From: a virus
Taxonomy: Duplodnaviria; Caudoviricetes
IMG/VR virus record: IMGVR_UViG_2721755486_000001
Span: 130,883 to 194,882 of that record
Length of the DNA: 64,000 nucleotides
Direction: 5' to 3' (one strand)
The translations under genes and the position numbers were made by a program. Positions 6,464 through 22,547 of this stretch are shown here, piece after piece. A model generated the notes under the pieces. It saw nothing but the letters and a program-made list of their open reading frames with translations, made no database searches and was not told where the DNA came from. Position 1 is the first letter of the stretch. Each line of letters starts with the position of its first letter.

Positions 6464-6518
6464 TTCACCCGGATCCGTGCCACGGCACGGGTCCACCCCA
6501 TCAAAAACGGAGAACACG

Positions 6519-6773
6519 ATGGCACGCAAGAACGCACGCACCGTCCGGACCCAGGCCCTGGTCGACGGGTTCCGCGGCAACGACAACGAGTTTTCCATGC
6601 TCAAGGGGGTGCTGTGCATGGCCCACGGCTGGAGCTACCCCGACAACCAACGGCTGGGCGTGCTGATCGACAGCTCGCTGATCGCTCAGCGGATGGACGA
6701 GATCAACAACGAAGCCCGGGCCCGCATGCTCGCCGAGCTGGACGCGATGAAGCGGGGCGAGTCGACGACCTGA
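6519..6773 (+). CDS. Hypothetical protein
   Basis: GGAGA RBS; palindrome at 6477-6488 upstream. Confidence 0.65.
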   Translation: MARKNARTVRTQALVDGFRGNDNEFSMLKGVLCMAHGWSYPDNQRLGVLIDSSLIAQRMDEINNEARARMLAELDAMKRGESTT

Positions 6774-7121
6774 CGGGCGGGGTGCCCCGCGAGGGCGGGG
6801 CTGCAAAACGGCGCGGGCAGGCGATTCGGCCACTGATCGCTATCGACGCCACTACGGTGCTGCTGACGCTCAACCGCCGGAGCCCGCGGGACCACGACCG
6901 GCCGGGATGGCCTGGCAGGGCGTGAAAAGCGGCGCTCGAACCGTCCAGCGCGGAGGGCCGCTCCGAGCGTTGGGCGAAGCATCCAGCAGGTGCTCCGCTG
7001 ACGGCAACGACCACGGCACTCGACCGTAGGGCGGCCGAGCATCGACGGGCGGGTTGCCCGTCGGCGGTGGTGTCAAGCGTGGCGCGGTGATCCCTGGGCT
7101 CAGGGGTGGTTGAAAACGTTC

Positions 7122-7345
7122 GTTGCTCCCCGGTCCGCCTTTCACCGACGCATAGGCCAAACCGTCCCACTGGTGGGGCAAGGGTGCTGCGCAGCGTTGC
7201 CACGTTCCTCTCCCGTTCCCCTTGTTCCTCGGCGCGTGCGGCATCCGGGCGTGCCCTGGCCCCGTGGTCCTGTTCGTCCTCTTTATGCGTCAAGGCGGCT
7301 CCGAAGAGCAAACGAACTCAACCCACCCTGAGAAGGAGAAACACC
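7122..7345 (+). repeat. Conserved upstream repeat, copy 2 of 3
   Basis: Aligns block by block with copies 1 and 3; ends at AAGGAG RBS. Confidence 0.8.
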
Positions 7346-7840
7346 ATGGCTCACCTTACCGACACCACCGCACAAGCCAAACCGCGCCGTTCCTCGCGCC
7401 CCAAGGCTTCCCAAGAGCAAGTTTCCAACGTCAACAACCAGGAGGGGACCATGACGACCAGCACCGCAGCAGCACCGGCAGCAGATGCCACCTTCGCCGA
7501 CGTGGCGGACGCCACCAGCAACACCGGTACGGCAGAGGGCACCACGGCAGCAGCACCCGCACCGGCGGGCAAGGCTCCCGAAGCGGACAAGCCGAAGGTC
7601 CACTACCTGCGCGTGTTCGTGCTGGCCACCACGGCCGCCGGCACCCACGAGTTCTTCACCACCATCGTCGGCGCGACCGACGAGGAGATCGCGGGCAAGA
7701 AGCACCTGAGCAAGGCCACCCGCAAGGCGATGGTCGAGGGGTATCGCTGGCCGATGACCCCGTTCGACGAGCGGAGCGCAGCAGCGCGTCAGCTCGACGT
7801 GATGGCAGGCCGTCAGGCGGATGCGATGGCCCGCGCGTAA
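7346..7840 (+). CDS. Hypothetical protein with low-complexity N-terminus
   Basis: AAGGAG RBS; alternative start near 7451. Confidence 0.65.
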   Translation: MAHLTDTTAQAKPRRSSRPKASQEQVSNVNNQEGTMTTSTAAAPAADATFADVADATSNTGTAEGTTAAAPAPAGKAPEADKPKVHYLRVFVLATTAAGTHEFFTTIVGATDEEIAGKKHLSKATRKAMVEGYRWPMTPFDERSAAARQLDVMAGRQADAMARA

Positions 7841-7896
7841 GGCGTCCCCGGCGGGGTGGTGACACCCCGCTGGACCTTTCCACCGAGGAGATCGCG

Positions 7897-8076
7897 ATGA
7901 CCCGGAACGACTACAAGAAGGCCCGACGACTGCTGCGCGACAACGGGCGGTACGCGCTGCGCTGGCTCCCGGCCGACGTGGCGGCGGTGATGGACCGCCT
8001 GATGTTCACGAAGACCCGCGATCCGCTGGCGGACCGGGCGTTCATGAAGGACTACGACCGCCGGCTGGCGGGCTGA
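7897..8076 (+). CDS. Small hypothetical protein
   Basis: GAGGAG RBS, MTRNDYKKARRLL... Confidence 0.6.
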   Translation: MTRNDYKKARRLLRDNGRYALRWLPADVAAVMDRLMFTKTRDPLADRAFMKDYDRRLAG

Positions 8077-8131
8077 CCAACACGGGACCCGCACGCTACG
8101 GTTTGCCGGGTCCCACCCAACGGAGAGAACG

Positions 8132-8434
8132 ATGCACCACCTGACAACGAAATACGCACCGGACGAACGTGTGGCGGCGGTGGTGCGCCGCACCGGTTGC
8201 ACCGAGCAACAAGCGGTCAACGAGCTGATCGCGGAGGAGGGCGGTGTGGACGACGCGGTGCGGAACCTGAACGGCATGGCTCGCACCACGGGCGACGATC
8301 CGCGACTGCTCCCCCGGGCTGACTGGCAGACCCAGGCGCGCGGGACGAACGACGCCGAATACGAGATCTACCGGACGAACGCGGAATCGCTGGGCTGGCG
8401 GGTGAAGTCCTACGACGAGTGGCTCAACAGCTAA
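8132..8434 (+). CDS. Small hypothetical protein
   Basis: GGAGA RBS; flanked by two hairpins with near-identical loops. Confidence 0.65.
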   Translation: MHHLTTKYAPDERVAAVVRRTGCTEQQAVNELIAEEGGVDDAVRNLNGMARTTGDDPRLLPRADWQTQARGTNDAEYEIYRTNAESLGWRVKSYDEWLNS

Positions 8435-8950
8435 CCCCCAGGCCGTGCCCAGGCACGGCCCGTCCCCGCACGCTACGGTTTGACGGGGACGGCAGCACGA
8501 CGTGGCCGGCGGACCGACTGGCCGCTACCAGGTCCCGGTGCGGGTGGGCCCTGGCAGCGGGGGAGCGGAACGCGCGGGGGCGTTCCGCCAACGTCAACAC
8601 CGCCCGGGGACCCGGGCACTCGAACGGCAGGCCTTCGGCCTCGATCGCGGGCAGGACGTCGTCCCCTGGGCGAGGGCGCGGAAGCGATCGACCGGGCCTC
8701 CGGCCCCGGGGTGTTTCCCTCGGGTCCGGTACCACCCTCGGACGGTGTCCTCGTTCGGCTCGCCCAGCACGTCCTGCCCGACCAGGCGGCGCGCTCTCGC
8801 GCGTCGCAACGCTGGCACCGTGCCTGGGCACGGCTTGACCATCCCCCCCCTGCACAGCATTTCCCCCGGAACCGCGCACGACGCACCACCCAGTCCACGG
8901 CATCGCGATGCGTTCCCGCGCTGGGTGCGGGTCCATTCCCCTGTTGCGCG

Positions 8951-9150
8951 ACTGCTCCCTTTCGCCTCCCGACCGACGTGTAGCCCAACCCGTTCCCCTG
9001 TTGGGGCAAGGCACCGCTGGCGCTCGTCGTCCTCTCCCGGTCCCTTCGGGCGTGCGGCATCCGGCGACGGCCTGGCCCCGGTTCCCGGGCTGGTCTGTTC
9101 CCACGTCACGGCGAAAACGGGAAGCAGAACCCACTCACAGGAGAACAGAC
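8951..9150 (+). repeat. Conserved upstream repeat, copy 3 of 3
   Basis: Aligns with copies 1 and 2; ends at AGGAGA RBS. Confidence 0.8.
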
Positions 9151-9480
9151 ATGACCCGCACCCAGCAACGCATCGCGACCACGAACGTCCTGGCCCAGGA
9201 CGTTCCCTTCTCGATCCCGGCTCAACAAAAAGCAGATGTGGTGAAGCTCGACCGCGACACCTGCCTGCGCTACGACCTGACCGGTGGCCCGGTTTACGTC
9301 ACGCGCGAGGCTGCAGAAAGCCCCTACATCGAGCAGGCGCTGGAATGGTTCACAGATGCACCGGGCAGCATCGAGACCGGCATGACGGTGGTCATCGCCC
9401 CGGGCCTCGAATGCCTGTTTGGCTTCGACCCGCACGCCTCGAATCGGGACGCGTTTTTCCTCTACATCTGGAAGAACTGA
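9151..9480 (+). CDS. Hypothetical protein
   Basis: AGGAGA RBS, ATG 9151. Confidence 0.7.
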   Translation: MTRTQQRIATTNVLAQDVPFSIPAQQKADVVKLDRDTCLRYDLTGGPVYVTREAAESPYIEQALEWFTDAPGSIETGMTVVIAPGLECLFGFDPHASNRDAFFLYIWKN

Positions 9481-9533
9481 GCACCCAGCCGGGTGCTGCG
9501 GCGCCCGGCATCACCACCACGAGGACCACGACG

Positions 9534-9758
9534 ATGACCCGCACCCCCAAGACCCGGACGCTTTACTCGGTCCGCTACTACCGCACCGGCCACGTGATCG
9601 GCACCGCCATCGGGCACAAGGCCCGGCTGGTCCCGCTGCGGATCGCCAGACGCATCGCGCGGCGCTTGCGCCGGAGCGGGCTGGAGGTCCAGCTCGCGTC
9701 CATGGTCGTGCGCCTGACCCCGGCGCAAGCCGAGCACCTGGCGCGGCGCTACGGGTAG
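9534..9758 (+). CDS. Small basic hypothetical protein
   Basis: GAGGA RBS, MTRTPKTRTLYSVRYY... Confidence 0.55.
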   Translation: MTRTPKTRTLYSVRYYRTGHVIGTAIGHKARLVPLRIARRIARRLRRSGLEVQLASMVVRLTPAQAEHLARRYG

Positions 9759-9911
9759 GGAGCGGACCAGACGCTGGGCCGTGCCTTGGCACGGCTTGAC
9801 GTGCAACAGGTGGCATGAGAGCCTGGTCGTACAGCAACGGCGACCGGTGATCTCCTCCCGCCGGTTGCGATGCTCGAAGGGCCAGCGAAACGCTGGCCCT
9901 TCCCATTGGCG

Positions 9912-11087
9912 CTACGCGGACCGGCCCGGCAGGCCCATGCGCTCCCGGAGCTTCTGGGTGAGCGTTTCGATGGCGGCGCGTTCGTCCGTCACCTTGGGCG
10001 TCTTGTGCAGCTCGACCCACCAGGTGCTGATCTGGTCCTCCGGCACGTCGAACCGGCGCAGCCAAGTCTCGGTGGCCACCACCGTGTTCAGGAGCGGGGA
10101 GGTGCTGTCGAGCGTCCCGTCCTGCAACGTGTCGATCGTGTCGGCCACGATCGGGCGCAGCGCCTGGTTGAGGATCACGTACGCGGGCGGCGGCAGGACC
10201 GGCTTGCCCGGACCGTCGGAGATCCCGGTTTCCGGCGCGGCACCCGCCTGGATGATGAGGCCACCGTCGCCCAAGGGCTCGCGGATGAACCAGTCCGGCG
10301 GGAGCGCGAGGGACGACGCACCGCCGACCTCGCGGACCAGCTCCGCGTCGAGCGCGTTCAGCCAGTCCACCGTCTTGATCTTCGTGTAGAGCTTGCGCAC
10401 GTTCACACGCGCGGGGTCGCCCACGTCGACGCCGGGCCCGAAGCGGCGGGCGTAGAAGAACTCGCTGGCCTCGTTCGGGCGGCGGCCCATCGGGGGCACG
10501 TTCACCGCAAACCCGGCGTGACCGTGGACGGTGGGCAGGGCCTCGGCGAAGGCGTTGAACATCGCTTGGAACCGAGCGGGGCGGTGCACGAGGAACGCAC
10601 GCGGGACGGTGAAGGACACCGCATCCAGGCCGCGCTTGCGTTCGGCTTTCCAGTCGCTCAGCGCGAACACGGTGAAATCGTAGAAACCGGTGGCGAGCTT
10701 GTGGTCGGCGCTGGTCATGGCCACGGCCAGCGTCTGGTTGGCGGGCACCGACGACGCCAGGCGTGCGAATCCCGACGGGTCGTAGGCGGTCGGGTCCTCT
10801 CCCTCGGCGTACAGCCAGCGCAGGGGGCCGGTCTTCGACGGCTCCTGGCCGGCGGCCACTTCGCTGGCGTGGTGGTACTCGTCGATCACCGCGCTGTACT
10901 GCTCGAAGCAGCTCACGAGCGCCTTGCGGACCTCGGGGGTGCACCCGTTGCGGAAATACAGGGCGCCCCGGACCACCAGCGCGGCGCCGGTGATCCCCTT
11001 GCGGTGCGGGGGCTCGTAGAGGCCATAAGGCATCGTGTCCGCGCGGCGCGGATCCTTCGCCCAGGCTTCGATCTGATCGTTTGTCAT
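9912..11087 (-). CDS. DUF3396 family T6SS immunity protein (TsiV-like)
   Basis: HGHAGFAVN, RFGPGVDVGD, IKTVDWLNAL, GLIIQAGAAP, YVILNQALRP, WLRRFD; lies downstream of VRR-NUC effector. Confidence 0.8.
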   Translation of the reverse strand: MTNDQIEAWAKDPRRADTMPYGLYEPPHRKGITGAALVVRGALYFRNGCTPEVRKALVSCFEQYSAVIDEYHHASEVAAGQEPSKTGPLRWLYAEGEDPTAYDPSGFARLASSVPANQTLAVAMTSADHKLATGFYDFTVFALSDWKAERKRGLDAVSFTVPRAFLVHRPARFQAMFNAFAEALPTVHGHAGFAVNVPPMGRRPNEASEFFYARRFGPGVDVGDPARVNVRKLYTKIKTVDWLNALDAELVREVGGASSLALPPDWFIREPLGDGGLIIQAGAAPETGISDGPGKPVLPPPAYVILNQALRPIVADTIDTLQDGTLDSTSPLLNTVVATETWLRRFDVPEDQISTWWVELHKTPKVTDERAAIETLTQKLRERMGLPGRSA

Positions 11088-11096
11088 GGCGTCAAC

Positions 11097-11837
11097 TTAC
11101 CAGATGGGTGGGGCGGGGAACGGGGCAGGGCCTGGCGCGACCGGCGGAAGCGGAGGGCCTCCGGGTGCGCTGCTGCCACCACCGTACAGATCTTCGAGGT
11201 CCGTCTGCGGCGCGCGTTGCTTGGACGACGAGGTTTGCTTCTCCCCTTCGTCGTCGCCGCACCCGCACTCGGTGGCCCCGAGGTGGGCAAACTTCGCCGG
11301 ACTGCCCGCGATTTCCACGTAGTCGGCCTCTTGGTCAGGGCCGTACCGGTCCCCGGGGAACTTCATTTCGACGACCGTCTTAATGTTCGATTGTACGGGC
11401 GGCTGGGTCGGGTCGTTGACGATCACGACGTCTGGGCGTCGCACGTCCCCGGACTGGTACTTGGTGCCCTTGCTGGGCCACACGTCTCGGATCCACTGGC
11501 GGATGCTCGAATGCGGCTCAAGCGGATCGTCATAGTCCATGATCGGAGATGGGGGCTCGGTGGTCATGTCGTACGGCTGCTCCGGGCGGTATTCCGTCGG
11601 AGCGCCCGTCTCCATTTTCGAGACCTCGTTCGCTAGGCCCAGACGCTGTTCGACGCACTTCTGGCGCTGGACGCGTCCGGACTTGGTGGCGACACCGATC
11701 TGCCGGCATTTGCAGAACGTGCGGCACAGGACCTCGCGGTCCTTCGGCGAGAGGCGGGCAGCGCTGGCCCCGACCTGGGTGGTCTGGCCTTCCGGGCTCA
11801 TCCCGCCGGACGACGATCCGGGGGCGTACCCAGTCAT
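11097..11837 (-). CDS. VRR-NUC (PD-(D/E)xK) nuclease T6SS effector (TseV-like)
   Basis: RRPDVVIV...VVEMKFPGD...Q motif; between PAAR and DUF3396. Confidence 0.8.
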   Translation of the reverse strand: MTGYAPGSSSGGMSPEGQTTQVGASAARLSPKDREVLCRTFCKCRQIGVATKSGRVQRQKCVEQRLGLANEVSKMETGAPTEYRPEQPYDMTTEPPSPIMDYDDPLEPHSSIRQWIRDVWPSKGTKYQSGDVRRPDVVIVNDPTQPPVQSNIKTVVEMKFPGDRYGPDQEADYVEIAGSPAKFAHLGATECGCGDDEGEKQTSSSKQRAPQTDLEDLYGGGSSAPGGPPLPPVAPGPAPFPAPPIW

Positions 11838-12355
11838 GCGTCGGTCCCCGGCTGGTGGAACGACAGGGACGAGGCCTGGTGCCCTTCGAGCCAGTCGGTG
11901 AACCCGTTCGCATCGGTCTTGCCCTGGACCACGCGACCGTCGGACGACGTGACGGTGTACGGGTGATTGGGGAGGGGCTGGCGCGTGGCGTCGTCGACCA
12001 CCTGGAATCGTCCGCGCTGGGGCGTGTCCTGGCTGGCTTGCGACAGCACGCTCTTGCCGCCACCGATCGACCCACCGGGACCGCTGGTCGGCTCGGCCGT
12101 GGCGGTGCTTTGGCTGGCGATCAGCGATGCGCCGCAGGCGGTCGTGTCACCTTCAGAGGCAACGGGCCGCCCGTCGAAGGTCATGCCCAGGTTTTTGACG
12201 CCGACGATCGGGTAAATGCCGCCGCACTTCGGGCAGGAGACCTTGTCGCCAAGCAGGGCGAGCGGTCGACCGTCAACCTTGTTTTCCGGCGCGCAGGCGA
12301 GAACACGACCGCCGTGCGAGGTGGTGTCCCCCTCGCGAATGAACGCAAAACCCAT
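11834..12355 (-). CDS. PAAR domain protein with C-terminal extension
   Basis: GDTTSHGGRV, GDKVSCPKCG, VASEGDTTACGASLIAS. Confidence 0.9.
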   Translation of the reverse strand: MGFAFIREGDTTSHGGRVLACAPENKVDGRPLALLGDKVSCPKCGGIYPIVGVKNLGMTFDGRPVASEGDTTACGASLIASQSTATAEPTSGPGGSIGGGKSVLSQASQDTPQRGRFQVVDDATRQPLPNHPYTVTSSDGRVVQGKTDANGFTDWLEGHQASSLSFHQPGTDA

Positions 12356-12534
12356 GCCGCATACCTCCCTTCCGTTTGGTCGGAGGAATGTAGCACAGCG
12401 GGTTTTCCCGTAACCATCCTGTCAACGTTGACAGGGCGCGGGGCGGTGTGGGAAGGTCCGGCCAGCAGCGCGAACAGGCCCGTCAGGGCTGCTGCAGCGT
12501 GAGGGAGGCCGGCCACAGCGCCGGCCTTCGTCCG

Positions 12535-13233
12535 TCAGGCGTTGTCGATCGGGTCGTTGAACGTCGGGCTGTCGTTCCCGCCACCGCTGCGATTCACCCC
12601 GGGCGTCACCTTGTGCCATCGGAAGGCTTCCGACGGCTTCACGGCGTTGTTCGCCAGGTGCACCGCCTCCTCGTAGGTCGTGGCGGGGTCCAGCCACACC
12701 TTCGCTTCGTCCAGCGTGAGGACCAGCGGGCGCCGATCGTGGATGTCGCCCAGCAGGCCCTCGGCGGCGTCGGTGACGATCACGAAACCGTCCACCACGC
12801 CCGGTGTGCTGGGCGGAGGGGCACCTTCGCGTACGCTCGACAGCCCGGCGAAATACGTGGGCGGCCCGTTGGCGGTCTGGATGAACCACGGCTGCTTGTG
12901 CCCCGGCTCCCCGGTCCACTCGTAGTAGCCGTCGCAGGGGACGAGCACGCGGTGCGCTTTCCACATCCATTTCCACGCAGAGCTGGAGGACTTGTCCAGG
13001 CGCGCGTTGATCATCATTTTCTGCTGGCGCTCGACGGCCCAGGCGGGGCGGTAGCCCCACGTTTGCAGACGTGGACCGTCGGGGGTGATGACCGGTTGCT
13101 GGGTGCCGGGCGACACGTTCCAGCTCGGCCGGAACAGGTCCGCGTGACCGCGCAGGCGCGGGTCGTTCTCGTCGGTGGCGAGGGGCACGACGTAGAAAAG
13201 GTCGCCCTGACCGCGGGAGTAACGACCACACAT
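12535..13233 (-). CDS. SOS response-associated peptidase (SRAP/YedK/HMCES family)
   Basis: N-terminal MCGRY, WNVSPG, INARLD, GYYEW, IHDRRP. Confidence 0.9.
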   Translation of the reverse strand: MCGRYSRGQGDLFYVVPLATDENDPRLRGHADLFRPSWNVSPGTQQPVITPDGPRLQTWGYRPAWAVERQQKMMINARLDKSSSSAWKWMWKAHRVLVPCDGYYEWTGEPGHKQPWFIQTANGPPTYFAGLSSVREGAPPPSTPGVVDGFVIVTDAAEGLLGDIHDRRPLVLTLDEAKVWLDPATTYEEAVHLANNAVKPSEAFRWHKVTPGVNRSGGGNDSPTFNDPIDNA

Positions 13234-13277
13234 GGATGTCTCCTGGTGGCAAACGGACAGCGTAACCTATACCGGGC

Positions 13278-15206
13278 TTAGGCGGCGGGCTCCGCTGGTG
13301 CCACGGGCGCGGCTGGCGCTTCAGCAGCCGCAGCCGGTGCCGCTGGCTCTGCGGCAGGCACGTCCGCAGGGGCAGCCACGTCAGCGTCGTACTCGGCCAG
13401 CCAAGCGTCCAGCTCAAGGACGCATAGGCATTCGTTGTTGCCGGCGTCTTGCTGCGCGCCCTGCTGCGCGACCCCGGCCACACGGAACAGTTCGTCAACG
13501 ACGGGACCGCCCGAGTTGCCTTTACGGATCAACTGATTGATTTCAAAACGCTGTAAGCCCGTGCGTGGAAAACGCGCAGTCACGATCGCGGGTTCAATGT
13601 TGGCACGTCGACCGTTGTTCCAGTTTGGGAAGCCGATGAGGTGGGTCGGCGCATGACGATTGATCGGCGCTTCCATCCCTGAGAAGTGACGATGATCCGG
13701 CGGCGCGCCTTCGAACTCGAGCAGCGCCAGATCCCGATGTGCATGCCGGTGCACGACGCGCAGAGGCCATCGCTGACCCGAGACTGGATCAATCGCGGTC
13801 ACGTTCAACCCCTGCACGGCTGCTTCGTTGATGTCCGTCGTGAACGGGATTTCTTGGGCGTTCGGACCGTCCCCCAACTGGTATTCACCTTCGGCCCGGA
13901 AAACGTGATCACAAGTGATCAGCCGGTTGCGTTGCTTGTATGCGAAAGCGGTGCCCTGACCGCCCACCATGGTGGGTTGCCCAGGGACGGGTGGTTGATA
14001 GTCCGCGGCCCACTCCACGACAAAGACCGCGCGTTCTGCGTCCTCGACGTTGCGGACGATCGCTTCGACCGGCAGCGTCGATGCGGCGAAGTCCGCGTTG
14101 CCGTCGCGCTCCCGAGCCACTAGTCGGTTGTATTTCTCGGCCAGACGCGTATAGATCGCGTCCGAGTCCCCACGAACCATCCGAACGTACAGCAGTTTTC
14201 CCCAAAGAACGTTTTTCAGCGCCGGCGTTTGCCCAGTCCGAGTTTGCCGCTTCCACGGACGCTTCTCATACGCGAGGGTAGTGCCGTTGGTTACGCGTTG
14301 TTCCCATGCGGCTTGGGCAGCGGCGTACCCGTACCTGTCCCAAGCGTGCAATGCGCCGCGAATCTTGTCGATGAAAATGCGCTTGACGTTAGCGAACTCG
14401 TTGATGACGATGCCGGTGACTTCCATGCGACGGCGGCGCGTCGACATTCGCGTCTTGGACGGATTGATCTGGAAGTTGTGCTGGTTGATGATCCCAACCA
14501 GTTCTTGGCCGAGCGTGACAACGCCGCTGTCGAAGGTGCAGATGTTCGACGGCAGCGCTGCTCGAGTGGGCGCCGAAAAGCTGAACGTGATGTCGTCCGC
14601 GTAACGCGTGTAGGTGGCTCGGTGACGCTTCGCCAAGGCCATCAAATCACGGTCCATCGACCGGCACACCTGGTTCGACAGAAAAGGCGAGGTCGGTGCG
14701 CCTTGCGGCAGCTCGTTCCCGACGACGCACATCTGCGCCAAGACTGTGGCGACCTCGTGGGAATAGTTGAACGGAGGTTTTTTCAGTACACCACGCACGC
14801 GGTAAAAGCTGATCGACGGGAAGAACGCTTCCAGGTCCAGATTCAAAACGAACGTTGGGCGTCGCTCCAGATGCCTGCGTGCGTTGGTGACGATGCTGCG
14901 GTCTTTGATGAATGCGTGCGCGCATGGCTTCGGGGTTCCTGCGCGCTCGTACAAATGCGCAAGCACTTTCTCCTGCAGAACCTTCAGCCGACGACGGGGC
15001 TCACGGATCAAGCGAAAACCGCCGCTACGTTTCGCCATCAAGAACGCTCTGTACGGCGGATGCGGGTATAGGATTTTCTGGACTTGCTCGTATGGGACGC
15101 CAAGGACGCCGGTGGAAAACACGTGGACGTCCATGCGCTCCCAAGCGTCCATCAGGTCCTGGTTTTCAACGAGGGCCTGGATCAGGATGGTGTTTGGAGT
15201 GTTCAT
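13278..15206 (-). CDS. Retron reverse transcriptase fused to C-terminal trypsin-like serine protease (type XI-like retron)
   Basis: Retron region X NARRH, LDLEAFFPSI, LPQGAPTSP, YADD, region Y VTG; protease triad TCDHV / RDLALL / GNSGGP; probable start MNTPN at 15206. Confidence 0.9.
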   Translation of the reverse strand: MNTPNTILIQALVENQDLMDAWERMDVHVFSTGVLGVPYEQVQKILYPHPPYRAFLMAKRSGGFRLIREPRRRLKVLQEKVLAHLYERAGTPKPCAHAFIKDRSIVTNARRHLERRPTFVLNLDLEAFFPSISFYRVRGVLKKPPFNYSHEVATVLAQMCVVGNELPQGAPTSPFLSNQVCRSMDRDLMALAKRHRATYTRYADDITFSFSAPTRAALPSNICTFDSGVVTLGQELVGIINQHNFQINPSKTRMSTRRRRMEVTGIVINEFANVKRIFIDKIRGALHAWDRYGYAAAQAAWEQRVTNGTTLAYEKRPWKRQTRTGQTPALKNVLWGKLLYVRMVRGDSDAIYTRLAEKYNRLVARERDGNADFAASTLPVEAIVRNVEDAERAVFVVEWAADYQPPVPGQPTMVGGQGTAFAYKQRNRLITCDHVFRAEGEYQLGDGPNAQEIPFTTDINEAAVQGLNVTAIDPVSGQRWPLRVVHRHAHRDLALLEFEGAPPDHRHFSGMEAPINRHAPTHLIGFPNWNNGRRANIEPAIVTARFPRTGLQRFEINQLIRKGNSGGPVVDELFRVAGVAQQGAQQDAGNNECLCVLELDAWLAEYDADVAAPADVPAAEPAAPAAAAEAPAAPVAPAEPAA

Positions 15207-15217
15207 GGAAGGACAAG

Positions 15218-15349
15218 GCCGCCCCGGGGAGCTTTCTCCTGTACCTGCTGCGCGCAATCACGGACAGTCCGGATGCCCAGCGGATCGGGGATACCATGCT
15301 GCAAACGTCTGCGTTAACGCGAACGAGATTAAGTGGTGCCCGGAGCGGC
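15218..15349 (-). ncRNA. Candidate retron msr-msd ncRNA
   Basis: Just upstream of the RT; bounded by 11-nt inverted repeat GCCGCUCCGGG / CCCGGGGCGGC (one G-U pair); internal palindrome GCGUUAACGC. Confidence 0.65.
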
Positions 15350-15391
15350 AAACGATTTTAAGGTCTGATGTTACGCCGCCGCAATGGGCTC

Positions 15392-15775
15392 TCATTCTCG
15401 GTGTTGCTCTTTTTTGAGCAGGGACGCCAGATGGTGTGCCGATTTAAGGACGATCGCACGTTGGGCCGGGGCCAGTCCGTTCAACGAGGCGATGAGGGTG
15501 CGGGCTTCATCGGTGGGGTGCACGGACGCGGAGGTGAGGATCTCCTCGATCGGCACGTCGAGCACGTCGCAAAACATCACCAGCCGTTCGATGGACATGG
15601 CGACCTTGCCACTTTCGAGGCGCGAGACGCTCTCCTTTTCCAGGCCGAGTTTGTCGGCGAGGACAGCCTGGGTCCAGCCGCGGGCTCGGCGCACAGCAGC
15701 GAGGCGCTGACCAATCTCCTGGACCATTTCCTTGGCACTTCGCTCTACCGCCTTTCCCACAACCAGAATCTCCAA
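15392..15775 (-). CDS. XRE/Cro-CI family HTH regulator
   Basis: RLAAVRRARGWTQAVLADKLGLEKESVSRLESG; true start may be ~15727. Confidence 0.85.
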   Translation of the reverse strand: MEILVVGKAVERSAKEMVQEIGQRLAAVRRARGWTQAVLADKLGLEKESVSRLESGKVAMSIERLVMFCDVLDVPIEEILTSASVHPTDEARTLIASLNGLAPAQRAIVLKSAHHLASLLKKEQHRE

Positions 15776-15948
15776 AGCACGTCATTTGATGACGTGAAGT
15801 GTGGCGTCTGGCTGTGCGTTTGTAGATGCTGCAAAGTGCATCTGATGACGCAATGTGCATTTTAAGCGCGTTTTTGCCGAAAAAAAGCGTGCATAAACCC
15901 GTACCTCCACACCCGGCGCGGGGCGGCGGGGTGGTGGCGGTTCAAGCG

Positions 15949-16821
15949 CTAGGCAGCGGGGTCTTGATTCACGCGAGCGGCGCGCTCGCGGGCCAGCTGC
16001 TCCGGGGACTTGTCCGCGGCGATCGTTCCGGTGGGCGGCTCGATGGTGTAGTCCCCCCGCACCAGACGAGGAGCAGGTGCCGTGGCACGGGTAGAGACGG
16101 TGGGTTTGGCGGGCGTCGACGTGCTCGATGCAGGCGCTGGCGGTGGCCCTGATCGGTCGATCGCGTCCAGTTCGCGTTGGCGCTCTGCAGCGGCGGCGAC
16201 GTATGCTGGGGATTTCATGGCCCGATCGTCGAGGACGCCCTTGGCGACGAAGGCGAGGATGAAACCCAGAATCGCGCCCCCGAACAGACCGCCCATGAAC
16301 GTGGCGCCGGGGAAGCACGCGATCACGAACCAGACCGTGACGCACGACCATCCGTAGACGGACCAGAATGAAGGGAAGCACTTCGCCAGGCGGGGCCCGT
16401 AGCGCTGCTCCACGGCGATCCTCAACCCGGCCTTCCGTTGCTCCTCGTCGCGGGCCCGCTTCTCGGCTTCCCGGTGCTGCCGGGCTTGTTCCTGGTAGGC
16501 CGCCTGTTGGCGCTCCTGCTCGACACGGGAGAACTCGTTCCGGGCGAGGTCGCCGGCGGCGCGCTTGATCGCGTTGATCGCCAGCTCACGCGAGCACCGG
16601 AACCATTCCTTTCCCTCGCGGTGCTTGCGCAGGCGCAGGTGGCCCTCCCGTTCGACCGCTCGTGCGTCGGGCACGTGCGTCGAGTATTCGACCACCACAG
16701 GATGGGGCGAATGGGTCCCGTTGAGCTGCGCCGCGCGTTCCTCGGGCGTCCCGGTGGTGAAGCCGACCTTGACCAGGCCGGGCATCGCCTTGTTCGACAT
16801 CACATAGACGTAACCTTCCAC
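15949..16821 (-). CDS. T5orf172/GIY-YIG domain protein with two predicted TM segments
   Basis: GYVYVMSNKAMPGLVKVGFT...EWF; hydrophobic segments in the C-terminal half; GTG start after GAGGGA. Confidence 0.75.
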   Translation of the reverse strand: MEGYVYVMSNKAMPGLVKVGFTTGTPEERAAQLNGTHSPHPVVVEYSTHVPDARAVEREGHLRLRKHREGKEWFRCSRELAINAIKRAAGDLARNEFSRVEQERQQAAYQEQARQHREAEKRARDEEQRKAGLRIAVEQRYGPRLAKCFPSFWSVYGWSCVTVWFVIACFPGATFMGGLFGGAILGFILAFVAKGVLDDRAMKSPAYVAAAAERQRELDAIDRSGPPPAPASSTSTPAKPTVSTRATAPAPRLVRGDYTIEPPTGTIAADKSPEQLARERAARVNQDPAA

Positions 16822-16844
16822 GGTTCCCTCCGCTGGGGACGTGT

Positions 16845-17849
16845 TCAATGCAGGTTGTCGGCGGCCTGCCAGATGGTGGCGAGCTGGGCGTGGCCATGCG
16901 CTTTGGCCTGGGCGGCAGCGGCGAGCGCGGAGTGCAGCGGGGGCAGCACAGCGTTGTAGGCGGCGACGGCACGCGCGAGGCCCTTGCACGGGCCCATGTC
17001 CGGGATCACGTCCCCGACCTTCACGGTGCTCCCGTCCAGGCAGGTCCCTCGCCACTGGGCGATGCGGGCGTTCAGGGCGTTCTCCGCCGACGCTGCATCG
17101 GCCTGCACCCGGTCGATCGAATCGTCGGCGATCGAGATCTGCGACTTGTCGACGCCCATCTGTCCGACGATCACGCCGGCCTGGCCCTGCGCGACACCGT
17201 TGCCGGTGGCTTCGAGGCGCTGGGCGCGATCGAGCTTGGCCTGCTCGGCGGTCACGGCGTGCTCGTAGTAGGCCTGGGCCCGGGGCAGGCGTTCGAGGTG
17301 CTGGTGGGCGCTCGCGACGAACTGGTTCAGGCTGTCCGTGAGGGCGTTCACCTGGCGGTTGAGCTGCTCGACCCGCTGGCCCCGTTGGCGTGCGGCGATG
17401 ATCGGCTGGCCGGCCTGGTTGAGCTGGGCCACCTCCTGGTCGAAATCGGAGGGCTGACCTTTGGCGAAGTGCTCGACACCGGTCTGGGCACCGTTGGCCA
17501 CCGTGAGGTCGATCCCGTCGCCGGTGACCGACCCGCTGAAGTTCTGCCCGATGGGCAGGGGCGTTTCCAGGACGGTGAGGGTGATGCTGTTCCCGTCGAC
17601 CGATCCCGACACGTTGGCGCTGCTCGACGTCAGGGTGCCGTCGTTCTTCAGCCCGGCGTGGCGGAGCGTACCGGTGAAACGATGGTCGGGCGTTTCGGTG
17701 ATTTGCAGGAGGTCCGCCTGGTTGCCGAAGTGGGCCACGTAGGACCCCGAGACGGAGCGGTCACCGCACCCGGCGAGGAGCAGGGTGCTCCCCACGATCG
17801 CCGTCACGCACGTCGCCAGGCCCCGGCCTTTGCGCTGTTGGTCCTTCAT
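16845..17849 (-). CDS. Putative lipoprotein with coiled-coil C-terminus
   Basis: Signal peptide with lipobox LLAGC. Confidence 0.7.
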   Translation of the reverse strand: MKDQQRKGRGLATCVTAIVGSTLLLAGCGDRSVSGSYVAHFGNQADLLQITETPDHRFTGTLRHAGLKNDGTLTSSSANVSGSVDGNSITLTVLETPLPIGQNFSGSVTGDGIDLTVANGAQTGVEHFAKGQPSDFDQEVAQLNQAGQPIIAARQRGQRVEQLNRQVNALTDSLNQFVASAHQHLERLPRAQAYYEHAVTAEQAKLDRAQRLEATGNGVAQGQAGVIVGQMGVDKSQISIADDSIDRVQADAASAENALNARIAQWRGTCLDGSTVKVGDVIPDMGPCKGLARAVAAYNAVLPPLHSALAAAAQAKAHGHAQLATIWQAADNLH

Positions 17850-17940
17850 CCCCGCCCCCGATCTCGATTGGTCCCACCGTATTGTGTGAACAGTATAGCG
17901 ACAGCGTGCGGCACCCGGACGGGGCGAGCGGGGTGGACCT

Positions 17941-17978
17941 GCCTTGATGCGCAGATACCGATGAACCATCAGCGTGTG
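17941..17978 (-). other. Degenerate copy of mutS 5' att-like sequence
   Basis: Minus strand reads HTLMVHRYLRIKA, versus typical MutS N-terminus HTPMMQQYLRIKA. Confidence 0.55.
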
Positions 17979-18000
17979 TTGCACAGGTCCGGGCCACGGG

Positions 18001-18522
18001 TCAGTGGGTGCGGAAGGTGTTCCAGGTGTCTGTGTCGAGGTGCATCGAGGCCATCACCTCGAAGAGGTACAGCTCAAGGTCGTTGTCGATCTGAATGTAT
18101 GCGATCGACATTTCCCGCAGCCGGCCCTGGGCGGTGAGGAAGACCTCGCGAAACTGCTCGTCCTTCATCGCCTGGTCCCGCTTCATTTCGTGCGGGAAGT
18201 CCATGCTCGCCATTTTGTAGACCAGGCTGGCGGCCGAGTGGGTCTCGAAGTTCAGGTGTTGCAGCAGGCGTTTGATGACCCCACGCGAGATTCCCACGTA
18301 AACGGGGCGGTCCTCGTCGAGGAACACATAGCAGCCGGGGAAGTCGGTGCTTCGGTCGATGGTCTCGCCGATCACCGACAGCGCGCTCTTGGCCGTTGTG
18401 TACCCGACGAAGGTGTTGGCTGGAATGGGCGATTGGAGGGCGGCCTTAAGCCGTTCCAGGTGAGCGGGCAGCACGGTGGCGGCCAGCTCGTCGAAAGTGT
18501 GGGTGCAGTTGTCGATCGGCAT
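18001..18522 (-). CDS. GIY-YIG nuclease family protein
   Basis: GCYVFLDEDRPVYVGISRGVIKRLLQH, conserved E and C-terminal WN. Confidence 0.8.
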   Translation of the reverse strand: MPIDNCTHTFDELAATVLPAHLERLKAALQSPIPANTFVGYTTAKSALSVIGETIDRSTDFPGCYVFLDEDRPVYVGISRGVIKRLLQHLNFETHSAASLVYKMASMDFPHEMKRDQAMKDEQFREVFLTAQGRLREMSIAYIQIDNDLELYLFEVMASMHLDTDTWNTFRTH

Positions 18523-18565
18523 GCGGGGATCAGCGGGGTGGAGGGGAGAGACGCCGATCATACCC

Positions 18566-18769
18566 GGGCATACGGGGCATACATGGGCTCGAGCCCACCG
18601 TGCGCGGAGGAGCCCCTCTAAAGTATGCCCAAGAGGCTGGGCATACTCGACGGAACCGGCTCCCGATCGGGGCAAAACCCGGCCAGCAGGGCGTTCCGGG
18701 ATGCCGCCAATAGCCCGCACCAATCTGTATGCCCGGTGTATCAGGATATTCTATTTTGGCTGGGCATAC
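18566..18769. repeat. Six GGGCATAC/GTATGCCC repeats, probable integrase arm-type sites of the left element
   Basis: Copies at 18566, 18575, 18623(inv), 18639, 18727(inv), 18762. Confidence 0.6.
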
Positions 18770-18796
18770 AGCCTGAAACGACCGTCCTACAAGGGC

Positions 18797-18907
18797 TCAG
18801 TGTTTTACACCCCGATAATGCTGCATCATCGGCGTATGGCTGTCCTTGGACGGTTTCTTGACTGCTTGATCCACGTTGGCTTTTTCCTGCTTTTCCTTGT
18901 CTGGCAT
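18797..18907 (-). pseudogene. mutS: MutS N-terminal fragment (36 aa) at the att junction
   Basis: MPDKEKQEKANVDQAVKKPSKDSHTPMMQHYRGVKH*; HTPMMQxY is the conserved MutS start motif, and similarity is lost right after it. Confidence 0.65.
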
Positions 18908-18993
18908 GGCTTTCGGCGGGGTTCGGTGGGCTTCTTGCGCGATCTACATATACCGTCCGCACCCGTCCTCACGCCAATGCACTCGCGCCTTCA

Positions 18994-19083
18994 GCGTAGC
19001 TTTTTGGCGAACGGTCCTAGGAAACCTACGCTGCGTGCGTGTGTCCCACTTCCAGGAAAACCTACGCCGAGAAAACCTACGCC
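18994..19083. repeat. AAACCTACGC repeats, probable arm-type sites of the prophage integrase
   Basis: Direct copies at 19022, 19058 and 19073, plus an inverted variant at 18994, directly before the int ATG. Confidence 0.65.
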
Positions 19084-20409
19084 ATGCAATTCGATGCCCG
19101 AGCTGCGAAGCTGCTGCAACCAGGCGAACACCTGGTGATCGCCGATTGTCCAGGCCTCCGGTTGGAGGTCAGTGCCACGCGCCGTAGCTGGATCTACCGC
19201 TACAAGTCTCCGGTCGACGGGCGTATGCGCCAATCCAAGATCGGCGCCTGGCCAGCCATGTCACCGGCGGCGGCTATCGTCGAATGGGAGCGGCTTCGGG
19301 CCGCCCGCGATGGTGGCGCAGATCCCGCTGCAGAGAAGCGCGCGGCACGCACCGCAGCTCAAGGCAAAACAGCCGATAGTTTACCGCACGCCGCTGACTA
19401 CACCGTCCGTCGGCTGTGCGACGACTACCTGTCCGGATACATCGAGCGCCGGCGGAAGAGGAAGGGGGCGGACGAGGTCGGGCGTATGTTCAACAAGATG
19501 CTCGGTGGTCTAGGGAGCGTTCGCGCAGACAGTATTACTCGTGCCCAGGCATTTGACTTCCTGGATGGCTTCGCGAGCATTCCTGTGCAGGCCGCCAAGC
19601 TTCGTGCCGAGCTCGGCGCCGCTTGGGACTATGCGTTGGACGCGGGCCGGCTGTCGGATACCGTGCCTAACTGGTGGCGGCAGGTGATGAGGGGGCGACT
19701 GCGGAGCAAGGGCAAGCGCATTGAGGGCAAGTCTGTGGGCACTGCCAAGCGCGTGCTGACGCCCAAGGAGGTCGGCGAATTGGTCCGGTGGATGCCCAAC
19801 TTCAGTCGGGTGGTGGCGGATGCGCTGACGCTCTACCTTTGGACCGGCTGCCGCGGTTCGGAAATCGTATCGATGGAGGTACGTGAGCTTAGCGAGGAGC
19901 CCGATGGGCTCTGGTGGACTATCCCGAAGATGAAGACAAAAAACTCACATCGGGACGCTGCTACAGATTTGCGCGTACCGCTGATTGGCCGTGCGGAGCA
20001 GATCGTGCGTCGTCGCAGGGATATTGCTGTGAATGGCTACTTGTTCCCAGTGCGGCAGACTGGCGATAGGGCGACGGTTGGCCATATTGAACAGAAAACG
20101 ATTCAAACCGCTGTTCATTACCATCAGCCCTATTCGAAGACCAAGCCGAAGTCGAAGAGGCCGAGGCTGACCATCACGCATTGGGCTCCGCATGATCTAC
20201 GGCGAACCCTACGGACTACCTTGACGGCGCAGGGTTGCCCAACCGATGTGGCCGAGGCAATCATTGGGCATATGCAGCCTGGTGTGCAGGGTGTCTACAA
20301 CCTTCACGCCTACGACCACGAGCGACATGCTTGGCTCAAGCGTATCTCAGCATATTGGGAAGCGCAGGCGGCTCACGGAGGTGAATTTTTGCTGGCGGTT
20401 GCTCCATGA
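19084..20409 (+). CDS. int: Tyrosine integrase with Arm DNA-binding domain (P4-like)
   Basis: GLRLEVSATRRSWIYRY arm domain; TGCRGSE, HDLRRT, IIGH, VYN catalytic residues. Confidence 0.95.
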   Translation: MQFDARAAKLLQPGEHLVIADCPGLRLEVSATRRSWIYRYKSPVDGRMRQSKIGAWPAMSPAAAIVEWERLRAARDGGADPAAEKRAARTAAQGKTADSLPHAADYTVRRLCDDYLSGYIERRRKRKGADEVGRMFNKMLGGLGSVRADSITRAQAFDFLDGFASIPVQAAKLRAELGAAWDYALDAGRLSDTVPNWWRQVMRGRLRSKGKRIEGKSVGTAKRVLTPKEVGELVRWMPNFSRVVADALTLYLWTGCRGSEIVSMEVRELSEEPDGLWWTIPKMKTKNSHRDAATDLRVPLIGRAEQIVRRRRDIAVNGYLFPVRQTGDRATVGHIEQKTIQTAVHYHQPYSKTKPKSKRPRLTITHWAPHDLRRTLRTTLTAQGCPTDVAEAIIGHMQPGVQGVYNLHAYDHERHAWLKRISAYWEAQAAHGGEFLLAVAP

Positions 20410-20674
20410 GTGCTTCAGGGTTAAATGGCTTGTTGCGAACCCGCTGAACACTTCCTGTCATATGCAATCTCTCGACACGTATCAGGAGATCGTTGAAAAT
20501 GTTCAGTCATTTGGATTCTTGGGGGCGCTAAGTACTAACCAGGCTGCGCGCTGGTCACGGTGCGTGTCTTCATCACGTTGTCATGTGCGGTGGGTATGGC
20601 ATCTGGCAGTCGAGGGATGAATGGTGGCGAGACATTAGTGCAAGATCTTTCGAAATCTTAATCTGCGAGTGTGC

Positions 20675-21775
20675 ATGCGAATTAATTATTTGACGGTTAA
20701 TGGGCTTTTTGGGAAGCCTGGTGTCATTACCTATTGGTTTAATCCGGATTTGAATATTCTGACTGGACGAAATGGGGCGGGGAAAACAACGATCATAAAA
20801 TTGGCTTGGGCTTTAATTAGCGGCAATATATTGCTCGCCCTTCGGGAGGTGAATTTTAAGTCGTGTACTGTTGGTACGGATGAATATACTTGCACTGTCA
20901 TTCGAACGGGGTCCGTGCATTGCAGGATTGAGTTGGAGATCGATGGGGAAAGTCATGTTCTAGAGGACGACGATGAGGAGCCTGACGGTTATTGTGAATA
21001 TGCTGAGGATAAGGCTCAATCACGTATGGTCGGTAGGGGGGGGTCCATTTTCTTCCCTACATTCCGTCGGATCGAAGGTGGATTCTCTATAGCGCCTGCC
21101 TCTTCGAATCGACCTCGAGGTGGCACGAAATCAGTTGGTGAGTTGGAGGAGTCGCTGGTGTCGGTTTCTCGCAAGCTCTCGAATGAAAAGCATTCATTCA
21201 TTGCTGCATTGTCCAGTCAGGACATCGTGAGTTTGCTCTTGAAAAGGTACACGGCCTTATCCGAGGAAATAAACGCTTTTCAGGGGGACGTGACCAAAAG
21301 CGTTATTGAAAAAATTCGCCAATACGAGAAAACACAAAACAATCGACAGGATGCGGATGCTCTCCTCTCAGAAACTCGAGCGGAAATTGAGAAAATAGAG
21401 GAGTTTAGTTCGCGTACGCTGACTCCTCTTAATGGGGTTCGAGATCTCGTGGAGAGATTGTTTCAGCACTCTGGCATATCCTTTGGAACTCGATTGAGCT
21501 TTGGTGATGCCGCCGCCGCAGTGACAAGCGATGCATTATCGGCGGGTGAAAAGCAAATGCTCAGCTTCATTTGCTATAACGCATTTCATAAGAACTCCAT
21601 TATATTTATTGATGAGCCGGAGCTTAGTCTGCATGTCGATTGGCAGAGAAGGCTTTATTCGATTCTTGAGTCGCAAGAATCGGGCAATCAGTTCATTTTC
21701 GCAACACACTCTCCCTTTATTTACGCAAAATACCCAGATAAAGAGGTTAGCGTTGGTATCGATAGGGGGGAGTAA
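20675..21775 (+). CDS. ABC-type AAA_15/AAA_21 ATPase (PARIS AriA-like)
   Basis: GRNGAGKT, LSAGEKQ, FIDEPELSLH, ATHSP; low GC. Confidence 0.8.
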   Translation: MRINYLTVNGLFGKPGVITYWFNPDLNILTGRNGAGKTTIIKLAWALISGNILLALREVNFKSCTVGTDEYTCTVIRTGSVHCRIELEIDGESHVLEDDDEEPDGYCEYAEDKAQSRMVGRGGSIFFPTFRRIEGGFSIAPASSNRPRGGTKSVGELEESLVSVSRKLSNEKHSFIAALSSQDIVSLLLKRYTALSEEINAFQGDVTKSVIEKIRQYEKTQNNRQDADALLSETRAEIEKIEEFSSRTLTPLNGVRDLVERLFQHSGISFGTRLSFGDAAAAVTSDALSAGEKQMLSFICYNAFHKNSIIFIDEPELSLHVDWQRRLYSILESQESGNQFIFATHSPFIYAKYPDKEVSVGIDRGE

Positions 21776-21776
21776 T

Positions 21777-22547
21777 ATGAGTTCCGAAAAGGCGCGCCCA
21801 ACGGTGGATGAGATCTATGAGATCCTTAGGCGGACATCCCTTCCAACGGTCTTGGTGGAGGGGAAGGATGACATTATTTTTTACCGTTCTGTTGAGCATG
21901 AGTTACGTGATTTAGATGTTGATATGTTCCCGGCTGGTAATAAGGATGCTGTGCTTGAGCTTAGGAGGAGAATAAAAGAGAATCCCATATCGGCTCCGGT
22001 CGTTTTTGTTGTTGATAATGATCTTTGGGTGTATTCGATTGCGGGGCGGCCGAGTGGCATAGAGGACCTTATTACTACAACGGGATATTCAATAGAGAAC
22101 GATCTATTTATTGATGGCGATCTCGAGAGTTTTCTACGTCCCGATGAGGTGTCTGGATTTAAATCTGAATTAAAGCTGTTCTTGCGGTGGTATGCGCTTT
22201 CAATTAATAGAAATATTAATGGGTTGCCGTCAAGTTTTCGCACGCATGCGGGCAAAGTTTTGGACGACAAGGCTTTCTATGAGGCGGAAATGACCCTGCA
22301 AGAGGGGGAGGTCTATCCGGAAGCGTTGCTCGAAGAAATTCAATCCAACTATGGCACCCTGCTGAGAGGGAAGTCACTGTTTGCTTTGCTCCTTCGCCAA
22401 TTATCGGGAAAGAAGCGAGATGTGAAGTTTGGAGGTAAGCAATTGATGGAGATTGGGGCGTCTAGAAAGGGCTCTCATTTTCGGAGAATTCAGATCTCGG
22501 TGAGGAAATCTGTGGAGCAAGCCTTGGGTACTCTGCCGGTTTCGTAG
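21777..22547 (+). CDS. DUF4435 TOPRIM-like protein (PARIS AriB-like)
   Basis: VLVEGKDD, VVDND, GYSIEN, LRGK; starts 1 nt after the ATPase stop. Confidence 0.75.
   Translation: MSSEKARPTVDEIYEILRRTSLPTVLVEGKDDIIFYRSVEHELRDLDVDMFPAGNKDAVLELRRRIKENPISAPVVFVVDNDLWVYSIAGRPSGIEDLITTTGYSIENDLFIDGDLESFLRPDEVSGFKSELKLFLRWYALSINRNINGLPSSFRTHAGKVLDDKAFYEAEMTLQEGEVYPEALLEEIQSNYGTLLRGKSLFALLLRQLSGKKRDVKFGGKQLMEIGASRKGSHFRRIQISVRKSVEQALGTLPVS

Follow-up and report, generated by a model that had tools for sequence, protein, structure and literature searches.

An intact type XI retron with an identifiable non-coding RNA and promoter in a strain-specific island outside a prophage

The window analysed here is a stretch of 64,000 nucleotides from a virus record of IMG/VR (IMGVR_UViG_2721755486_000001, positions 130,883 to 194,882; Duplodnaviria, Caudoviricetes). 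On its minus strand lies a gene that encodes a reverse transcriptase (RT) joined to a serine protease of the trypsin type, and that is preceded by a leader with a promoter-like element and a retron non-coding RNA (ncRNA), and flanked by an XRE-type helix-turn-helix (HTH) gene upstream and an SRAP gene downstream. We conclude that this locus is a real, intact and canonical type XI retron, the ncRNA and promoter of which can be identified. The architecture itself is already known from a sparsely studied class of anti-phage retrons in bacteria, and the locus adds one more member to the class. The features are summarized in Table 1, with residues numbered from the ATG at 15206.

Table 1. Features of the type XI retron and of the genes around it (positions in the window)
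Feature	Position	Strand	Details
Promoter-like element	15355..15384	-	-35 TTGCGG (15384-15379), 18-nt spacer, -10 TAAAAT (15360-15355)
Retron ncRNA, msr-msd	15218..15349	-	132 nt, first a1 base to last a2 base
a1 arm GCCGCUCCGGG	15339..15349	-	pairs with 15228-15218; 8 aligned pairs, 5 changed on both sides, 12 loci
msr hairpin GUUCGCG-UUAA-CGCAGAC	15307..15324	-	6 pairs, 100% of cells paired; also found as a palindrome
Variable segment, presumed msd template core	15242..15286	-	weak imperfect hairpin; sequence differs in every locus
Purine-rich block ACAGGAGAAAG	15232..15242	-	just 5' of a2; presumed first templated bases
a2 arm CCCGGGGCGGC	15218..15228	-	ends 11 nt before the start codon
RT-protease gene	13278-15206	-	642 amino acids and stop
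Open reading frame (ORF) as read	15257/15206 to 13278	-	start at TTG 15257 or ATG 15206
RT domain (RVT_1)	14406..15032	-	Pfam, alignment, Foldseek
NARRH	14885-14871	-	residues 108-112
YADD	14603-14592	-	residues 202-205
VTG	14420-14412	-	residues 263-265
Basic helical RT-protease linker	14028..14381	-	residues ~276-393; conserved; presumptive function
Trypsin-like (HtrA/DegS-like) serine protease domain	13470..13955	-	Trypsin_2, triad, Foldseek
Protease triad	13907-13905, 13733-13731, 13514-13512	-	His434, Asp492, Ser565 in GNSGGP
Ala/Pro-rich low-complexity C-terminal tail	13281..13373	-	not conserved; predicted local distance difference test (pLDDT) <50; homology to locus L001 ends at 13385
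Gap, XRE stop (15392) to ATG 15206			185 nt
XRE HTH gene	15392-15775	-	including stop codon 15392-15394; Pfam HTH_31 E 4.6e-13, HTH_3 E 1.4e-11
T5orf172/MUG113 protein gene (PDC-S57-like)	15949-17055	-	directly upstream of the XRE gene
ORF of unassigned family	17984-16848	-	
GIY-YIG-like ORF	18723-18004	-	
SRAP gene	12535-13233	-	
Type VI secretion system (T6SS) PAAR, VRR-NUC and TsiV trio	12355-9915	-	

The RT-protease protein

Both halves of the fusion are recognized by Pfam, as RVT_1 (E 6.9e-20) and Trypsin_2 (E 4.2e-14), within one stop-free frame of 642 amino acids. Among the PADLOC families, RT-Protease_XI is the best match at full length (E 6.4e-168, 557.8 bits, profile positions 15-505 of 506), a second RT-Protease_XI model scores 552 bits, and the next families, RT-TIR_XII (355 bits) and RT-Toprim_I-C, cover the RT half only. 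The assignment of the fusion to type XI in an earlier note on this DNA, which was made from the sequence without database searches, is thus borne out, with the RT half nearest to retron Eco2. Retron type VI, in which the RT has an HTH partner, was rejected: RT_VI scores 153 bits on this RT against 558 for type XI, HTH_VI scores 41 bits on the XRE protein, and the pairing of this gene with the RT is not conserved.

The NAxxH, YADD and VTG signatures that the earlier note had listed are all in place; NAxxH and VTG we take to be hallmarks of retrons. The intact His/Asp/Ser protease fused to the RT was likewise read correctly. In an alignment of 37 homologues that are 50-78% identical to the window protein, Y202, D204, D205, H434, D492 and S565 are invariant (37/37), and A203 is kept in at least 90% of the sequences. 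The fusion itself is equally stable, with PF13365 present in 120 of the top 120 homologues among the matches listed and PF00078 also present in 119. We take ATG 15206 as the start codon because locus L001, a type XI homologue, has an ATG at the aligned position, followed by synonymous differences, and because a reading from TTG 15257 would run through the a2 arm of the ncRNA.

An AlphaFold2 model built from the 37-homologue alignment has a mean pLDDT of 87. The linker between the two domains, modelled as helices at pLDDT mostly 81-97, contains many residues that are invariant or nearly so among the 37 sequences (W318, R320, Q321, R323, G336, R342-R345 and others). In a Foldseek search of the PDB, the top ranks are occupied by chains of retron Eco2 (Ec67), with E 7e-23 to 7e-22, 27-30% identity and ~360-384 aligned columns, followed by the RTs of Ec86, Eco7, Ec78, a type I-A retron, Ec83 and Eco8. 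The matches from rank 21 onwards are protease domains of DegS, Deg2, HtrA1, DegP and DegQ (E ~1e-11, target template modelling score ~0.7). PADLOC scores and the Foldseek ranking together place the RT nearest to clade 8, that is, to types I-C, XI and XII, and the protease matches identify the effector as an HtrA-like protease domain without PDZ. With the HtrA family (DegS, DegP, DegQ, HtrA1) it shares the protease fold and the GNSGG serine motif but it is 15-20% identical, cytoplasmic and fused to an RT, and Pfam finds in it none of the PDZ domains, one or more, that follow the chymotrypsin-fold protease domain in HtrA/DegP. The allosteric activation of HtrA proteases is in keeping with a gated effector.

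Promoter and ncRNA of the leader

In the ~185-nt gap upstream of the RT-protease gene, the earlier note had described an 11-nt inverted repeat of the a1/a2 kind that encloses ~110 nt. The repeat is real: GCCGCTCCGGG (15349 to 15339) pairs with CCCGGGGCGGC (15228 to 15218) through 10 Watson-Crick pairs and one G.U, with 110 nt enclosed. An exact repeat search with 6-nt seeds missed it because the G.U pair splits the seeds into 5+5. Judged on the single sequence, its significance is modest: when the 305-nt stretch upstream was subjected to dinucleotide shuffling, 6 of 300 shuffles contained an inverted repeat of at least 11 (at most two G.U, span 90-200). The real support for a1/a2 is comparative.

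Type XI loci for comparison came from one named genome (L001, 73% identity), from a metagenome scan by generic RT motifs, in which ~18 of 80 loci were full-length type XI by tblastn and the rest served as negative controls, and from species genomes, which yielded ten further loci (L003, L106-L112, L116, L117). Aligned with MAFFT, the 13 closest loci (48-80% identity) have one order of blocks in common in their upstream regions: TTGC, a 17-18-nt spacer, TACAAT, a1, CUUAAYC, the hairpin GYYCGCG-UUAA-CGCRGRC, GGUAUCCCCG, a variable segment of ~45 nt, ACAGGAGAAAG and a2, with the start codon 11-40 nt further on. The 12-row alignment analysed for covariation, A2, leaves out L029, the 5' end of which is cut.

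On A2, RNAalifold recovers the a1/a2 stem (8 aligned pairs) and the msr hairpin (6 pairs). Of the 168 cells, 99.4% are paired, and 7 of the 14 pairs are changed on both sides; none of 500 column shuffles reached the pairing or the double-change value, and sliding the partner by 1-3 columns lowers the pairing to 33-55%. The pair of arms singled out in the earlier note is exactly the one that covaries in the 12 homologous loci (48-73% protein identity), with compensating arms in L026 (GUCGCCUUAG/CUAAGGCGAC), L003 (GCCGUCCCG/CGGGACGGC) and L108 (GUCACCCCC/GGGGGUGAC). The second pair of the msr hairpin is CG in 6 sequences, UA in 5 and GC in 1, and the hairpin is preceded by an invariant CUUAA (15333-15329). 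Just as constant is AGG[A/U]GAAAG, found in the purine-rich block of 12 of 12 sequences; in the window, this block lies 26-36 nt from the ATG and so is not the ribosome-binding site of the RT. Some minimum-free-energy folds contain two further pairings, one that joins the conserved GGUAUCCCC block to AGGAGA over a long range and one that would flank the msr hairpin with a stem (ACCA/UGGU in the window). Both were dropped, their register not being kept across the sequences.

The promoter-like element is conserved together with the RNA. A -35 of TTGC or TTGT is present in 11 of 12 full upstream sequences (the 5'-cut L029 has no sequence there), and a TACAAT-like -10 in every one of the 12 (10 have TACAAT itself, the window has TAAAAT and L027 has TAATAT), with spacers that vary between loci (17-18 nt); in the window, the a1 arm begins 6 nt downstream of the -10. 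Metatranscriptome contigs from two studies bridge a2 and the start of the RT, one matching 15064-15310 with 9 differences and the other 15114-15261 with 2. Being short and possibly carried over from DNA, these contigs give a weak hint of expression.

A covariance model built from the homologous upstream regions (R1), a check that the earlier note had proposed, turned out to be specific to RT-protease loci. R1 scores 111 bits here (E 5e-20), 97-130 bits on the 12 training loci and 80 bits (E 8.5e-14) on L029, which was not in the training set. At E up to 1, it finds nothing in the other loci searched (~85 of other retron types plus the distant type XI loci), and with the filters off, all other matches remain at or below 13.6 bits. 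The window's own 7.95-Mb genome contains a single match, at 15211-15356 of the window, and 2 of 150 family genomes have one (G000 and G526); in G526, the ncRNA match lies on the strand of the RT-protease match and ends 84 bases upstream of it.

Type XI loci of 29-37% identity are not recognized by R1, although L116 gives 8 bits (E 3.9) at the right place. Nearly all of these distant loci have an inverted repeat of their own, of 10-24 nt and spanning 107-172 nt, that ends within ~40 nt of the RT start. Repeats of at least 10 with a span of 90-200 occur in 25 of 31 type XI upstream regions versus 7 of 31 and 12 of 31 within-gene control pieces of equal size, with median repeat lengths of 11 upstream and 9 and 9 in the controls. 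Two further subfamilies, aligned separately from only 6 and 4 sequences, likewise show compensatory changes in a closing stem and a hairpin: in group B, 3 sequences have GC and 3 have CG at pair 28/46, and in group C, 2 have AU and 2 have GC at pair 34/49. The purine-rich blocks AAGAGAAA, AGGAGGAAGAA or AAGGAGAA precede a2 in the distant loci. Four of these loci, L116, L117, L034 and L031, have in common a leader that contains UUAAYUUYC and a hairpin around CUGACUAUCUGCGG, with AAGAGAAA preceding a2; in its consensus fold, AAGAG pairs with a conserved CUCUU/CUUUU.

Limits of the retron and the surrounding island

By blastn, the window matches L001 in a single block from 15388 to 13385, that is, from the -35 region to just before the Ala/Pro-rich tail. 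Because this homology stops short of the XRE stop codon, the XRE gene falls outside the unit. The earlier note was right that a genuine HTH gene lies upstream but its suggestion that the XRE protein could be a substrate or regulator of the system is not supported, given this boundary and the gene's absence elsewhere: tblastn with the XRE protein found no homologue in 30 other type XI loci (best E 0.38, far downstream in L051). Where over 500 nt of sequence were available upstream, 1 of 27 loci (L043) had an ORF of the XRE type (at least 70 amino acids, within 1 kb). The upstream neighbours of the other type XI loci, identified by a Pfam search of 100 ORFs of at least 70 amino acids, are a mix of integrases, ParE/antitoxin genes, CagX, a LuxR-type response regulator and DUF2326/ABC-3C. 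Examples, which are genes of mobile elements or of defence, are an integrase arm-binding fragment (L001, 2845-3177), a full integrase (L037, 64-1644), a CagX conjugation protein (L054, 958-2073) and a DUF2326/ABC-3C protein (L055, 384-2138). Within the genus, relatives of the XRE protein are found in 8 other species, none of which has this retron, and such relatives are lacking in the two other carriers of type XI. The XRE gene does not belong to the retron unit.

It is nevertheless worth asking whether the XRE protein could be a working part, either as a repressor of the retron promoter or as the protease substrate in a CapH/CapP-like switch, in which case activation of the retron would also de-repress neighbouring genes. 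On the same strand, the -35 element follows the end of the XRE gene by 7 nt, and the product of this gene matches HTH_VI (E 4.4e-11) and capH (E 3.7e-7) in PADLOC; these scores, though, are at the level of any XRE domain. The region upstream of the XRE gene (15776-15960) and the 43-nt retron promoter (15350-15392) have six 7-mers in common, including CATTGCG, CATCAGA and CTTAAAAT. As many shared words were reached in 34 of 2000 shuffles and in 1 of 339 other window pieces, and the word order differs; but CATTGCG and TCAGACCTTA.AAT, and indeed most of the shared words, also occur in L001, which has no XRE gene. Combined with the L001 boundary, the lack of homologues and the distance of the relatives in the genus, which are only 31-35% identical and reside in genomes without this retron, this makes the XRE protein an unlikely working part. 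The CapH/CapP pair of the cyclic-oligonucleotide-based anti-phage signalling system (CBASS) is conserved, and CapP is a metallopeptidase. The locus resembles it in having an XRE-type HTH gene beside a defence protease, with a weak capH score, but the enzyme here is a serine protease and the XRE pairing is confined to this locus (0/30 homologues; 1/27 for any XRE-type ORF).

A more elaborate version, that the XRE protein binds the shared word set (CATTGCG, CATCAGA, CTTAAAAT) and is cut by a protease released from multicopy single-stranded DNA (msDNA), so that the retron reprogrammes transcription of the island, is very unlikely. If true, the retron wired to XRE would be a sensor that acts on the T5orf172/PDC-S57-like and GIY-YIG-like genes and not only by cell killing. 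The XRE gene may instead go with the T5orf172/PDC-S57 gene, the product of which, a T5orf172/MUG113 protein, matches the PADLOC candidate defence family PDC-S57 (E 1.6e-23). SRAP and T5orf172 were rejected as retron partners, as tblastn found no homologue of either in 30 type XI loci. The XRE gene, the SRAP gene and the T5orf172 gene are neighbours of the retron in the same strain-specific island, not retron components.

The island is delimited by several observations. Searched against 77 other species of the genus (E up to 1e-20), window 6000-18000 has no DNA match apart from a 66%-identical stretch within the RT-protease gene in G706 (window ~14127-14850), and a 0.5-kb piece near 18.0-18.5 kb matches in two species of the genus. 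A 100-nt direct repeat at 18819-18919, 97% identical to a copy ~165 nt past the window end (G000:C1:2068643-2068741), brackets a ~45-kb prophage with an integrase (19039-20406), a terminase (34506-36740), a portal and a capsid. Window 11000-18835 is present with 11-12 differences in two isolate assemblies, which may not be independent of the window and which diverge from it at 18835-18840. The retron is thus placed in a strain-specific island, ~3.5 kb away from the prophage.

The distribution of the RT-protease is sporadic, with 3 carriers among 78 species of the genus, 8 among 398 in the family (counted at full length) and 3 among 400 in the class, and the G+C is 0.60 over the retron versus ~0.68 around it. 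Both the patchiness and the composition would suit a decaying or silent remnant of an island with no present function but the frame is open over 642 codons with all catalytic residues kept, the promoter and the ncRNA are maintained with compensatory changes, and isolate assemblies of two differently labelled organisms, possibly not independent, have the same 7.8 kb at more than 99.8% identity. Such a remnant is highly improbable.

Other genes in the vicinity deserve mention. SRAP is an SOS-response-associated peptidase; its gene, on the same strand, starts 44 nt past the RT-protease stop, and no terminator-like site intervenes. Downstream of it is a T6SS effector-immunity cassette with PAAR (E 4.6e-22), VRR-NUC (E 4.1e-16) and TsiV (E 1.6e-85). 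Just inside the prophage, a PARIS-like pair (20669-22544, plus strand; G+C 0.47-0.52) consists of an AriA-like ATPase (E 5e-26) and AriB/DUF4435 (E 5e-11), and a prophage ORF of 719 amino acids (23646-25802, minus strand), unusually long for its domain, has a C-terminal H-NS DNA-binding domain (E 2.8e-13).

Proposed working and relation to known retrons

Type XI was defined by a clade 8 RT to which a trypsin-like protease is fused, and described as having no recognizable ncRNA module (Mestre 2020, PMC7736814). The surveys disagree on this point: ncRNAs of clade 8, type XI, were validated by RT-DNA production according to Khan 2024 (10.1101/2024.01.25.577267), who also report that the branching base is mostly G, often following TTA, whereas Toro 2026 (PMC13712802) gives candidate ncRNAs for two protease-less XI-like lineages only. 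These lineages resemble the locus in the RT clade and in their a1/a2-flanked candidate ncRNAs with two or three stem-loops, 22-388 bp upstream, but have no protease, are associated with separate WYL or DnaB_C proteins, and belong to Bacteroidota and Bacillota. Relative to type XI as defined by Mestre and in PADLOC, the locus has a full-length hidden Markov model match and no architectural difference. What sets this lineage (Burkholderiaceae and relatives, 48-95% identity) apart from type XI at large is a compact 132-nt ncRNA outside Mestre's models and Rfam, together with a non-conserved Ala/Pro tail.

The closest mechanistic precedent is retron Eco2/Ec67 (type I-C, RT-TOPRIM; PDB 9i2f, 9lm3, 9s1f), which shares with the locus the RT fold (E 7e-23) and the combination of a single fusion protein with an ncRNA, and differs in its effector, a TOPRIM RNase that cuts tRNA in place of a protease. 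In Eco2, msDNA cages the fused TOPRIM until a phage nuclease, with DenB as the trigger, degrades the msDNA, and the same logic has been suggested for types XI and XII; no other RT-effector fusion is given there a documented mechanism (Jasnauskaite 2026, PMC12916289). The trimer and the three-way-junction msDNA are features of Eco2, and the locus here is known from its sequence and a single-chain model. An msDNA-gated HtrA-like protease is accordingly proposed by analogy with Eco2 and is not a result.

Under this proposal, a single transcript would carry the ncRNA as the leader of the RT-protease mRNA, and the RT would bind the msr part with the conserved CUUAA and hairpin. It would prime on the 2'-OH of a guanosine at or just past the end of a1, with G 15339, the last base of a1, as the candidate branching guanosine, and copy the template leftwards from the purine-rich block beside a2, to give an msDNA of ~60-80 nt with little hairpin structure. 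Such msDNA could remain bound and keep the fused protease inactive until a phage product degrades, modifies or titrates it; the released protease might then cut host or phage proteins and stop the infection, probably at the cost of the cell.

Several observations weigh against this picture. A consensus promoter scan of 13100-16100 called none, the retron promoter having 8 of 12 matches at a threshold of 9. The 12 aligned sequences are few and related, and the shuffle control ignores shared ancestry. The a1 arm ends in G in 5 of 12 loci, and in the other 7 the first G is 4-6 nt further on, so that the branching G is not placeable. Folding of the whole 185-nt gap is no better than that of its shuffles (z +0.30); the same holds for the msd segment, both in the window (z -1.19, with 23 of 200 shuffles as stable) and across the 12 sequences (mean z -0.50, none beating 5% of shuffles). 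The earlier note had already remarked on the lack of a long perfect msd hairpin, and indeed the ~45-nt segment is no better than shuffles in 12 of 12; the msDNA is therefore expected to be short and poorly structured. The failure of R1 below ~48% protein identity implies that there is no single type XI RNA family. At a predicted template modelling score of 0.55, the AlphaFold2 model is unreliable on the mutual placement of the protease and the RT. Finally, the literature searched holds no type XI report on msDNA, protease activity or phage defence beyond RT-DNA production, and no functional or anti-phage study of a type XI retron turned up.

These points bear most directly on the possibility that the leader is merely a 5' untranslated region or regulatory RNA of the RT-protease gene, with no msDNA made and the RT put to a different use or priming differently. 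The msd segment without a significant hairpin would be expected on that account, as would the lack of a recognized ncRNA in Mestre 2020 and the outcome of an Rfam search (E up to 10, 12000-17500), in which four chance-level matches fell outside the leader and no family for the ncRNA was found. Yet a covarying closing stem of the a1/a2 type beside a retron RT is a retron signature, the RT active site is invariant in 37 homologues, and Khan 2024 claims RT-DNA-validated ncRNAs for type XI, all of which makes a plain leader quite unlikely. We put at roughly 0.78 the probability of the joint claim that 13278-15388 on the minus strand is a self-contained type XI retron, comprising the promoter, the 132-nt ncRNA and the RT-protease gene, and that it works as proposed. 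The generalization that, in canonical type XI retrons, an HtrA-like protease is gated by an msDNA that is short and poorly structured and starts on a conserved purine-rich template block is more tentative, and we hold it at a little under even odds.

The view of the earlier note that type XI is far less characterized than some other retron classes holds for the effector targets and the trigger but not for the ncRNA, on which some knowledge exists (Khan 2024). The present locus and its 12 relatives supply a parts list for protease-fused type XI retrons, consisting of the promoter, a1/a2, the msr hairpin, the purine-rich block, a compact msd and exact boundaries, and they correct the annotation that had counted the XRE gene among the retron components. 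At 2.1 kb and with one gene, the retron is a minimal, clonable system for asking how DNA gates a protease, and its value is that of a compact model for an uncharacterized class of effectors.

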